This document shows, piece by piece, positions 62,137-64,000 of a stretch of DNA of 64,000 nt. The stretch is from Actinomycetales bacterium. Its GTDB lineage: Bacteria > Actinomycetota > Actinomycetes > Actinomycetales > CAWJMD01. The notes beneath the pieces are model-generated. The model did no database searches, was not told where the DNA came from, and saw nothing but the letters and a program-made list of their open reading frames with translations. The stretch's first letter is position 1. Each line of letters begins with the position of its first letter. Both the position numbers and the translations under genes were made by a program. Where the stretch lies: contig JBKECN010000019.1 in the NCBI GenBank assembly GCA_047974565.1, forward strand, positions 117,801 through 181,800, written 5' to 3'.

Positions 62137-63119
62137 CCAGAAACCTCCCGAGACCAGCCAGCACCGGCCAGATAGTCCTCGGCAAGGTCACACGTGGTGC
62201 GTGTGTACTCCTCCCCGAGGCTCTGGGCGAGTGCGGTGAAACGATGCGAACCAATCCATGCCACGAGCATCAACCGGCGCAGCATGATGAACGTGGCCAC
62301 CATGGCCAGGTCCTGCTCCTCCAGTGCCCGGTACCTGCGATACCCCGCCAACCAGGCATGGCACCACGAGGCCAAGCGCGGATCGGCCTCGACGAAGGAC
62401 ACCACCGCCGCCAGGTCATACAGGAACCAGGAGTATCCGGCGTCGTCGAAGTCGATGAGGGCCACGTCCGGACCGTCCACCAGCAGGTTTGCCAGTCGCA
62501 TGTCCGCATGCACCAGCCCGTACTGCTGCGCACCGGTGCCGTACTCGGTCAACCTCTCCCGCACAGTTCGAACGACCGAGGTGAACAAGCCAGCCACGGC
62601 CGCGTCAACTCCGACGCCGTCCCGGGGCCGGCCCCACCTGGCGCCCTCCCCTAGGCATGCCTCCTGGTTCCAGCTAAATCGACAAAAATTGGAAGGCGGC
62701 CGCCAGGAAAGAGCGTGCTCGTGCATCCGGGCCGCCATCTCACCGAGGGTCGGCGCGAAGTCGAGCAACTGATCATCGGCCGGTTCCACCCCGGGAATGC
62801 GACGGAACATGACGGCATGACGTTCGCGACCGTCCCGGTCGCTCAACAGACACACCTGTCGTCCCTGCACAGTGGCCATCGTAGTCGGCGCGACTAGATC
62901 AAGGTCGGCCCGAAGCGCGGCAATCCAGGCGAGTTCGGACTCGATCGACCGCGCATCGTGATACCCGGGCCGGTGCACCCGCAACACCACCGGTTCCGGC
63001 TCGTGATGCACGAAATAGGTCGCATTCTCGGAGAGATTGACGAGCTCGATGGGCGCGCGCGCATTGATCCCCCAGGCGGGCAGCGCCTGACGGGCCAACG
63101 CCTCATAGGCCGAGGACAC
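62133..63119 (-). CDS. APH/homoserine kinase type II-family phosphotransferase
   Basis: SENATY, VLRVHRPGYH, GLVHADMRLANLL and IDFDD motifs. GTGA overlap with the GntR gene. Confidence 0.9.
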   Translation of the reverse strand: MSSAYEALARQALPAWGINARAPIELVNLSENATYFVHHEPEPVVLRVHRPGYHDARSIESELAWIAALRADLDLVAPTTMATVQGRQVCLLSDRDGRERHAVMFRRIPGVEPADDQLLDFAPTLGEMAARMHEHALSWRPPSNFCRFSWNQEACLGEGARWGRPRDGVGVDAAVAGLFTSVVRTVRERLTEYGTGAQQYGLVHADMRLANLLVDGPDVALIDFDDAGYSWFLYDLAAVVSFVEADPRLASWCHAWLAGYRRYRALEEQDLAMVATFIMLRRLMLVAWIGSHRFTALAQSLGEEYTRTTCDLAEDYLAGAGWSREVSG

Positions 63120-63661
63120 GGCGAGCTCCTGCTGAATGGTGACGGCGGTCGGACGGTGCCGTTCTAGTCCGGCTCACCCGTCCCGGTCAATTGACGGCGC
63201 ATCCACACGGCGCCACACGGCGAGCCGCAGGCGGCGCGCCGACAAACCGGGCGCCCGGCCGCACCCCCGAGCTTGGCGATCTCCCAGGCACGCGGTGGAC
63301 ATCCGGGATCGACAGGATCGTTCGGCGCACCCACCCGACGAAACGCAGCGATGCCCTGTCCACCCGGGGGTTGGCTGACGAATCTGGATTCGAGTCAGCA
63401 ATCGCAGGGATTACCCATCAAGCCGCGGCGCCCGGGTGCGCTCCCGCAGGACTCCAAAAAGAAATAGCCTCATTACAGGATAAACGGAGTAATCGATCTA
63501 ACCGGAGTGGTCGGACCCGGACGCCATTGCCTCTCGCGATTCGCCCCGATGTTGTGCGGCTCTTCCGCGGCGGCCGACCCTCGTCGCCACCACGCACAGG
63601 TGTGCACCCGTGTAACGGTTCACAGGTCGGGGTCCTTGACGGCATCCAGCCAGCCCCCAGC

Positions 63662-64000
63662 AGCCCCTCCTCGCGCGCGAGGCCCTGGCTGAGGGTTTGA
63701 AGGGGCCTTCGCCGTCCTCGTAGCCCCTCCTCGCGCGCGAGGCCCTGGCCTTCAACGTCATCGTGAGGGTGTCCCCGCTGTCAGCCCCTCCTCGCGCGCG
63801 AGGCCCTGGCGATTCGCCACTTGCGGAGGAGCGTGGGCGCGCCAGCCCCTCCTCGCGCGCGAGGCCCTGGCAGCATCTTCAGTCGCCGCCGGACCAGGTG
63901 CTGGAGCCCCTCCTCGCGCGCGAGGCCCTGGCCCCACTCGGCAACCCATCCCACTATTGGTAACCAGCCCCTACCTCGCGCACCTCGCGCGCGAGGACCT
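63662..64000 (-). CRISPR. CRISPR-like array: 28-bp repeat, 5 intact copies plus 1 disrupted copy, 5 unique spacers; runs off the window
   Basis: AGCCCCTCCTCGCGCGCGAGGCCCTGGC at 63662, 63722, 63783, 63844 and 63905, with a variant at 63966. Spacers are 32, 33, 33, 33 and 33 nt and all differ. The internal palindrome is CCTCGCGCGCGAGG. Strand is inferred. Confidence 0.9.

Follow-up and report, generated by a model that had tools for sequence, protein, structure and literature searches.

The window analyzed here, a 64,000-nt stretch of a 5.3-Mb Actinomycetales genome assembly (G000:C63:117801-181800), carries in its last 340 bases five exact copies of a 28-nt repeat (plus-strand sequence AGCCCCTCCTCGCGCGCGAGGCCCTGGC), with start-to-start spacings of 60, 61, 61, and 61 nt and unrelated spacers between them (Table 1). 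On the left the repeats are bordered by about 540 nt of non-coding sequence, beyond which minus-strand genes encode an APH-family kinase, a GntR/UTRA regulator, and two dynamin-like GTPases; on the right, about 225 nt of non-coding sequence precedes a diol-dehydratase operon. An earlier note on this DNA, made from the letters of the window, had described five identical 28-nt repeats at 60/61-nt spacing with unique spacers, and the exact-match search bore out that description. The same note had advised reading on beyond position 64000, and there the array was found to continue with four decayed repeats, through which the 60/61-nt period is kept past the window end. The whole locus is about 525 bp long and consists of nine repeats (five perfect and four decayed) and eight spacers with lengths of 32 nt, 33 nt (six spacers), and 32 nt, each of them unique in the genome. 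Spacers 6–8 all lie beyond the window end, between decayed repeats. Repeat decay is one-sided, being confined to repeats 6–9 at the right end; repeat 6, which is cut by the window end, contains an insertion of 10 nt, part of which is a 9-nt tandem duplication.

The perfect copies are restricted to this array. A search of the 5.3-Mb assembly at up to three mismatches recovered these five copies only, with zero matches in the reversed-pattern control of that search, and relaxing the threshold to six substitutions added just two sites, one of them a decayed copy within this array and the other an unrelated site on a different contig. The 14-nt palindrome within the repeat, CCTCGCGCGCGAGG, occurs six times in the genome and all six occurrences are within the array. 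We confirmed by these analyses that the locus is a genuine CRISPR array.

Table 1. Features of the CRISPR array and its candidate leader. Position 1 is the first base of the window; positions above 64000 are extended window coordinates taken from the contig sequence beyond the window end.
Feature	Position	Strand	Basis or remark
Candidate leader, non-coding left flank adjoining repeat 1	63462..63661	+	inferred
Repeat 1, perfect, 28 nt	63662..63689	.	exact-match search
Spacer 1, 32 nt	63690..63721	.	no match in the genome itself, phages, plasmids
Repeat 2, perfect	63722..63749	.	exact-match search
Spacer 2, 33 nt	63750..63782	.	
Repeat 3, perfect	63783..63810	.	exact-match search; folding
Spacer 3, 33 nt	63811..63843	.	
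Repeat 4, perfect	63844..63871	.	exact-match search
Spacer 4, 33 nt	63872..63904	.	
Repeat 5, perfect	63905..63932	.	exact-match search
Spacer 5, 33 nt	63933..63965	.	
Repeat 6, decayed	63966..64000 in the window (whole unit 63966-64003)	.	26/28 positions kept
Repeat 7, decayed, beyond the window	64037-64064		23/28 kept
Repeat 8, decayed, beyond the window	64098-64125		24/28 kept
Repeat 9, decayed, beyond the window	64158-64185		22/28 kept

The repeat is laid out as 7 nt, a 14-nt hairpin, and another 7 nt. When read on the minus strand it has the arms GCCAGGG and AGGGGCT and a CCTCG/CGAGG stem. RNA folding of both strands gave a 5-bp stem and a CGCG loop plus a 3-bp outer helix, and the repeat folds no better than shuffles of equally GC-rich sequence. 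The 7+14+7 layout is symmetric; it therefore holds on both strands and cannot be used to choose between them. Two minus-strand details had been pointed out before, a preference for G directly after the repeat and an A at the start of the 32-nt spacer. The counts themselves stand (G in 4 of 6 copies, A at the start of that spacer), but the G preference is not significant: against a genomic G frequency of about 34% the binomial estimate is about 0.1, and with the decayed copies included G follows the repeat in 4 of 9 copies.

Gene annotation around the array covered the nearest 7 kb on the left and the entire 11.3 kb to the contig end on the right. The claim that the left flank (kinase, GntR) holds no cas gene was upheld by this annotation. 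The corollary that any effector must lie to the right was overturned, since the right side encodes the large/medium and small subunits of diol dehydratase, a reactivase, and an MFS sugar transporter and, further right, two ORFs with no family assignment and a PrsW protease before the contig ends 11.3 kb from the array. When the nine Cas ORFs of the type I-E locus on contig C101 (see below) were used as tblastn queries against positions 63100-64450, no trace of a cas pseudogene was detected (best E 0.23). In a genome of the same genus (G009) the order dynamin-like, dynamin-like, kinase, and then the two family-less ORFs is retained, and 5.5 kb of transporter genes replace the array and the dehydratase operon. 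The dehydratase query used gave no match in four relatives. The synteny with G009, in which the flanks are kept and the middle is replaced, places the array at the border of a variable island.

Seven cas families (Cas1, two families of Cas2, Cas3-HD, Cas5, Cas6e, and Cas7e) were searched for genome-wide. All matches in the assembly (107 contigs, 97.8% complete) are confined to two other contigs, C101 and C89, with zero matches to the seven families on the array contig C63, which reaches 180 kb leftward and 11 kb rightward from the array. Contig C101 carries a complete I-E operon in the order cas3, cse1, cse2, cas7, cas5, cas6e, cas1, and cas2, followed by an array; its cas3 reads as two overlapping ORFs. 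The repeat of the C101 array is CCGCGCCCTGCCCGCGCAGGGATGAGCCC in the sense of the cas genes (29 nt), and contig C62 ends in the same array type. Contig C89 carries a type III locus with an RT-Cas1 fusion, Cas2, Cas6, RAMP proteins, and a Cas10-like protein. Two contigs, C89 and C19, contain arrays of 37-nt repeats, and C100 has a third repeat of that length. Beyond C101 and C89 the searches gave no second set of Cas1, Cas2, Cas6e, or Cas7e matches anywhere in the assembly. The earlier note had reasoned that a standard I-E operon next door, together with a repeat already catalogued as ordinary I-E, would remove the novelty: a standard operon does exist, but it is located on C101 and is associated with a different repeat, which fits neither that scenario nor the case for novelty made in the note. 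The alternative offered in the note, that of an orphan array, found support, with no cas gene on C63 and cas-free annotated flanks.

To place the repeat among type I-E repeats, a reference set was assembled from arrays located directly downstream of an I-E cas2 gene; among 401 genomes of the phylum searched, 17 had a match and 16 of these supplied an array (the set includes this genome, and the 17th locus is too short to show an array). All 16 cas2-adjacent arrays have a 61–62-nt period and repeats of the form GTGCTC-CCCGCG-N4-CGCGGGG-(A/G)TGNNCC(G/C). The geometry of the orphan array fits type I-E (28-nt repeat, 32/33-nt spacers, and 61-nt period), and so does the position of its hairpin, with 8 nt (7 plus a variable 29th) after the stem. 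Compared with type I-E arrays generally (the E. coli K-12 CRISPR-I/II type and the 16 of the phylum, including its own C101/C62 arrays), the orphan array thus has in common a 28(+1)-nt repeat, 32–33-nt spacers, and a GC-rich hairpin with a 4-nt loop that ends 7+1 nt before the spacer. It differs in having a repeat sequence outside the family range on both strands and a 5-bp CCTCG/CGAGG stem in place of the usual CCCCGC/GCGGGG, and in lacking the conserved leader junction and an adjacent cas operon. The repeat departs from the I-E consensus (GTGCTC-like 5' arm, CCCCGC-N4-GCGGGG stem, (A/G)TGNNCC(G/C) handle). A position weight matrix (PWM) made from the 16 I-E repeats scored it at -6.45 bits on the minus strand and -13.15 bits on the plus strand, against +10.7 to +37.6 bits for the true I-E repeats in leave-one-out scoring and -17.6 to -37.3 bits for their reverse complements. 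On either strand the orphan repeat scores above the shuffle mean (-31.7 bits) and below all 16 true members; 38 of 5000 shuffles attain its minus-strand score and 184 its plus-strand score. Identity to the resident C101 repeat is 15/29 positions on the minus strand and 13/29 on the plus strand, with CCTCG/CGAGG versus CCCTGC/GCAGGG in the stem and AGGGGCT versus ATGAGCC in the 3' handle. The description of type I-E geometry combined with an atypical repeat was therefore correct. It is the geometry that points to an I-E origin of the array, the sequence profile having failed on both strands.

The leader junction gave a similar picture. All 16 cas2-adjacent arrays have a leader, and most of them share the junction ...caggtcag.aagt abutting the first repeat. 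With a junction profile built from the 15 arrays outside this genome, the best genome-wide match is the C101 leader itself, at the weak score of 5.9 bits, and nothing was found beside the orphan array on either flank or strand. A local search of both strands with the same profile reached 1.1 bits at best, at a site that does not adjoin the array.

We then looked for the repeat in other genomes, metagenomes, and viruses. The exact repeat was found at zero loci in 185,579 species genomes, and at up to three mismatches it was found in none of 10 other genomes of the family. Zero loci in the genome collection have both repeat arms around any hairpin in two units, the metagenome contig collection yielded no near-identical repeat, and the first 3000 nt of the extracted sequence that contains the array (L015) had no match in Rfam, including its CRISPR repeat families, at E ≤1. 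The hairpin core is another matter. Present twice at 58–64-nt spacing, it turned up at 4 loci in genomes, 2 of which are array-like, at 17 loci in metagenomes, and on 2 viral contigs. The proposal that the repeat should be searched for in such collections thus had two outcomes, in that the full repeat was not found but its hairpin core recurs. Likewise, the hairpin, which had been described as unusual, does have a 5-bp CCTCG stem different from the I-E stem, but it is less exotic than supposed because the palindrome recurs in other arrays with a period of about 61 nt. We concluded that the hairpin is not rare and that the full repeat is uncatalogued within the collections searched.

No repeat arms are common to the orphan array and any other hairpin-core locus. 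When the nine Cas ORFs of C101 served as tblastn queries, the 21 loci from genomes and metagenomes, a set apart from the two viral contigs, gave 0 hits at E ≤1e-3. The mini-arrays on phages and mobile elements (L016-L032, L059, L060) resemble the orphan array in the hairpin core, 28-nt repeats, and a period of about 61 nt, and several of them comprise 2–8 repeats with decayed copies at one end, as the orphan array does. They differ from it in that the arms are distinct in every one and the flanks are not homologous. One viral mini-array pair lies directly downstream of a 454-aa TnpB/Cas12f-like ORF, and some mini-arrays adjoin what we read as integrase-like genes, whereas the orphan array is located among chromosomal metabolic genes in a genome without a TnpB-like match. 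Assignment to a type V (Cas12f/TnpB-associated) mini-array was considered and rejected: there is no adjacent TnpB/Cas12-like gene, and in the whole genome nothing passes the cut-off for the TnpB/Cas12f family PF07282 (best E 0.3).

The spacers were compared with the genome itself and with phage and plasmid collections. Among the matches listed for the genome itself the array is the sole long one, the others being 12–18 nt long. No match to the C101 cas operon is among the matches listed, the best chance match being 18 nt with one mismatch. The phage collection returned one 38-nt match (84%, E 0.6), and the plasmid collection returned nine weak matches (E 0.04–0.5), none of them exact at spacer length. 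Contigs from wastewater and sludge sequencing runs (4 runs from three studies) match both flanks and the decayed half of the locus at 90–99% (about 97%) identity; their cover omits the perfect-repeat part (L015 479-707). On the left these related-strain contigs cover window positions 63462/63472 to 63661/63678, that is, about 190–200 nt left of repeat 1, and one of them diverges further left of the candidate leader. Since related strains carry the decayed half, the decay predates those strains and is old and stable.

The CRISPR integrase copies the leader-proximal repeat at each spacer addition, and decay of the repeats at the trailer end serves as an orientation cue (CRISPRDirection). Because decay is confined to the right and the five identical copies are expected at the leader end, the leader would be on the left and the plus strand would be transcribed. 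A left-hand leader is also favored by the AT-richer left flank (GC content 0.625–0.63, compared with 0.714 in the right flank and 0.687 in the genome) and by the 190–200 nt next to repeat 1 that related strains have in common. In favor of the minus strand are the somewhat better PWM score and the A directly after the stem, a position occupied by A or G in all 16 I-E repeats compared; a minus-strand reading would place the decayed repeats at the leader end. On balance we lean modestly toward transcription of the plus strand, and the leader probably lies on the left within a non-coding flank of 200–500 nt. The minus strand chosen in the earlier note has the slightly better I-E score on its side, but the decay gradient points to the plus strand, and if the plus strand is right the predicted handle AGGGGCUG would be wrong. 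A promoter and terminator scan gave 0 sites, the candidate leader included, and comparison of the flanks with other leaders gave chance-level matches only. The string 'gtaa...caggtcgggg', 28–48 nt left of repeat 1, was tried as a leader motif and received no support from profile searches.

Our best explanation, to which we give slightly better than even credence, is that the array is a stranded relic of a lost or foreign type I-E-like system, without cas genes of its own. An I-E-type Cas1-Cas2 integrase would be expected to produce a 28-nt repeat with 32/33-nt spacers. On this reading the left end of the array, with its five identical repeats, would be the younger one, and the right end, where four repeats are mutated to an increasing degree, would be the old trailer; the leader would then lie in the left flank, and any transcription would run on the plus strand. 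A cognate cas operon may have been lost, or may never have arrived. The array lies at the border of the variable island beside the diol-dehydratase operon and is presumably decaying slowly. Because the repeat and the leader junction of the resident I-E system differ from those of the orphan array, the latter most likely acquires no new spacers and is not processed efficiently into mature crRNA. The perfect identity of five repeats could reflect recent activity or selection, which runs counter to a dead relic. A review describes orphan arrays that persist after the loss of cas genes (PMC8616872). The orphan type I-F arrays of E. coli (CRISPR3/4) treated there are likewise small cas-less arrays in genomes that keep another complete type I system, the strains concerned having lost the I-F cas genes and retained I-E. 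According to that review, the E. coli arrays differ from the present one in their type, in having spacers against the lost cas genes, and in being expressed and active when Cas proteins are supplied (PMC8616872). Among the matches listed for the array described here, no spacer targets the cas genes of its own genome.

Several rival explanations bear on the relic interpretation. The array might work in trans as a second, remote array whose transcripts are processed and used by the resident I-E Cas6e and Cascade encoded on C101. The orphan and resident arrays agree in geometry (repeats of 28/29 nt, spacers of 32/33 nt, and a hairpin that stops 7+1 nt short of the spacer), the genome encodes a complete I-E operon, and five repeats are perfectly conserved; there is precedent as well in the E. 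coli I-F orphan arrays, which function with Cas proteins in trans (PMC8616872), and in CRISPR2 of E. faecalis, reportedly an orphan array working with Cas in trans (PMC5491264). However, the two repeats agree at just 15/29 positions and differ in stem and 3' handle, four of the nine orphan repeats are decayed, and the resident cas3 is split into two overlapping ORFs. In addition, the I-E leader junction of the phylum is absent at the orphan array, so that spacer acquisition could not follow the same rules. We regard use in trans by the resident system as unlikely. Somewhat less probable again is a live I-E-like variant with its own Cas6 and Cas1-Cas2 specificity, the cognate cas genes of which are out of view in an unassembled part of the genome, on an unbinned plasmid, or in other strains. 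A repeat and leader that fit none of the 16 I-E loci compared, the lack of a near-identical repeat in the 185,579 species genomes or the metagenome contigs, the fragmented assembly (107 contigs, 97.8% complete), and the divergence of a related strain's contig just left of the candidate leader would all agree with such a variant. Arrays normally adjoin their cas operon, however, and here that adjacency fails, with 180 kb on the left and 11 kb on the right free of the seven cas families and no second set of Cas1, Cas2, Cas6e, or Cas7e in the assembly. An active locus is also made less likely by the long decayed tail of the array and by its small size.

Type III systems in other organisms borrow crRNAs from type I arrays, and the type III locus on C89 (RT-Cas1, Cas6, RAMP proteins, Cas10) does include a Cas6, so transcripts of the orphan array might feed that system. 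We consider this very improbable, as arrays with 37-nt repeats on C89 and C19 already belong to that system and nothing ties the C89 Cas6 to a 28-nt repeat with a different hairpin. Equally little credence is given to an 'anti-cas' function of the kind described for E. coli CRISPR4, in which retained spacers would be directed against the cas genes of the lost system and keep it from re-entering; the E. coli precedent is given in the review (PMC8616872, citing Almendros et al. 2016), but among the matches listed no spacer matches the own genome, including the C101 cas operon. The least probable reading, to which we assign almost no weight, is that the locus is not CRISPR at all but a palindromic intergenic (REP-like) repeat or a decayed coding tandem repeat. 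What gives this reading some substance is that the first 21 nt of the repeat coincide with LAREEGLL, a conserved motif in genes of PLP-dependent enzymes in many actinobacterial genomes. When the array was compared by BLAST with 400 genomes of the class, short GC-rich matches appeared in 224 of 401 genomes, a tally that takes in seven unpublished genomes on which no conclusion depends (G641, G443, G432, G450, G415, G423, and G682), and the best of these matches correspond to the coding motif of PLP-enzyme genes, with periodic repeats at 0 of 9 loci inspected. The similarity to the motif does not continue convincingly past the repeat, however: it covers about 12 nt on the left, and on the right the similarity score was attained by 31 of 500 shuffles for one gene and by 480 of 500 for the other. 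Each spacer is unique, and spacer length is fixed. The palindrome is found nowhere else in the genome, so it is not a genome-wide palindromic element, and a 61-nt period is not a multiple of 3, so no reading frame is held and the locus is not a coding repeat.

If the array is a relic, it has little significance in itself, orphan arrays after cas loss being known and frequent. It does correct the first reading of this DNA, in that no hidden effector adjoins the array and the genome carries ordinary I-E and type III RT-Cas1 systems elsewhere. The array is also a modest data point, since it has exact I-E geometry, a sequence and a leader outside the I-E range of the phylum, and no counterpart in large collections. 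There is a slim chance that it is the sole sampled trace of an I-E-like lineage with a non-canonical repeat and leader, or else that the resident Cascade uses it in trans. In the former case the Cas6 and Cas1-Cas2 of that lineage would recognize a 5-bp CCTCG stem, the arms GCCAGGG/AGGGGCT, and a leader without the junction motif, and the lineage would be absent from the 185,579 species genomes; in the latter case a natural Cas6e would tolerate a repeat that differs at about half of its positions. Should the cognate proteins be found, or should the resident Cas6e prove to process this repeat, the array would bear on the extent to which the specificities of Cas6e and Cas1-Cas2 can drift and on the coexistence of arrays of two I-E lineages in one cell.

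The interval between the APH kinase gene and two conserved unnamed ORFs, in which the window's CRISPR array lies, is a variable island when the genome carrying the window (G000) is compared with the same-genus genome G009 (coordinates in the table below). In G000 the array shares the island with a B12-type diol-dehydratase operon and an MFS transporter; in G009 the place is taken by a MatC/CitMHS carrier and a MacB-type ABC exporter. The array's repeat, over its first 21 nt and 5 nt of left flank, matches a conserved coding stretch, LAREEGLL, which belongs to the PLP-dependent enzyme genes of many high-GC actinobacterial genomes. BLAST searches with the array were swamped by short matches arising from this likeness, which we judged to be a coincidence.

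Features located in this analysis (C, contigs of G000; L, loci from genome, metagenome or viral collections)
Feature	Location	Description
Variable island, G000	window 63119-64000 and 8 kb of contig beyond it (L015)	
Variable island, G009	L075:9185-14744	
Coding-motif likeness	window 63657-63689	compared with L066, L067
Type I-E operon and array, G000	C101:1-9604 (L033); C62:11006-11933 (L034)	
Type III-like locus, G000	C89:229-12238 (L061)	
37-nt-repeat arrays, G000	C89:33597-34300; C19:259-1440	10 copies; 16 copies
Third repeat class, G000	C100:2207-2560 (L064)	37-nt repeat, five copies
Tandem repeat, G000	C12:122255-122600	five copies, ~61-62 nt
Viral contigs with hairpin-core array	L059:11650-13535; L060	IMG/VR, 56 and 75 kb
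Mini-arrays, metagenome contigs	L029:2400-4113; L031:5900-6980	3 repeats, hairpin core as in the window's array

Elsewhere in G000, the type I-E operon on C101 is complete and its array is built of 29-nt repeats. One and the same repeat is interrupted by both contig edges, at the end of C62 and at the start of C101, and assembly has therefore probably cut a single array into these two, of 16 + 11 repeats. The cas3 gene on C101 reads as two overlapping ORFs, with HD and DEAD domains in the first and helicase-C and Cas3_C domains in the second, which could reflect a frameshift, a sequencing error or a true split. The type III-like locus encodes a 626-aa reverse transcriptase-Cas1 fusion, Cas2, Cas6, RAMP proteins and a Cas10-like protein, and the left ends of the C89 and C19 arrays are alike in sequence. 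The C100 array has spacers of ~35 nt on a 2.8-kb contig, within which no cas gene was seen beside the repeats. The C12 tandem repeat, picked by a crude CRISPR finder, was rejected as a CRISPR: its entire unit repeats, without unique spacers.

The hairpin core of the window's array is shared by an array of seven 28-nt repeats on a phage-like contig, recorded for viral contigs L059 and L060, whose DNA is also present among the metagenome loci, as L021 and L018. A 454-aa TnpB/Cas12f-like ORF with Cas12f1-like TNB and RuvC domains lies ~90 nt upstream of this array, whose gene-proximal repeats are perfect and gene-distal repeats decayed. The metagenome mini-arrays appear, from a reading of the translated sequence, to be flanked by a small helix-turn-helix (excisionase-like) ORF and an integrase-like ORF; this position between the two ORFs would suggest that the mini-arrays ride on integrating elements.
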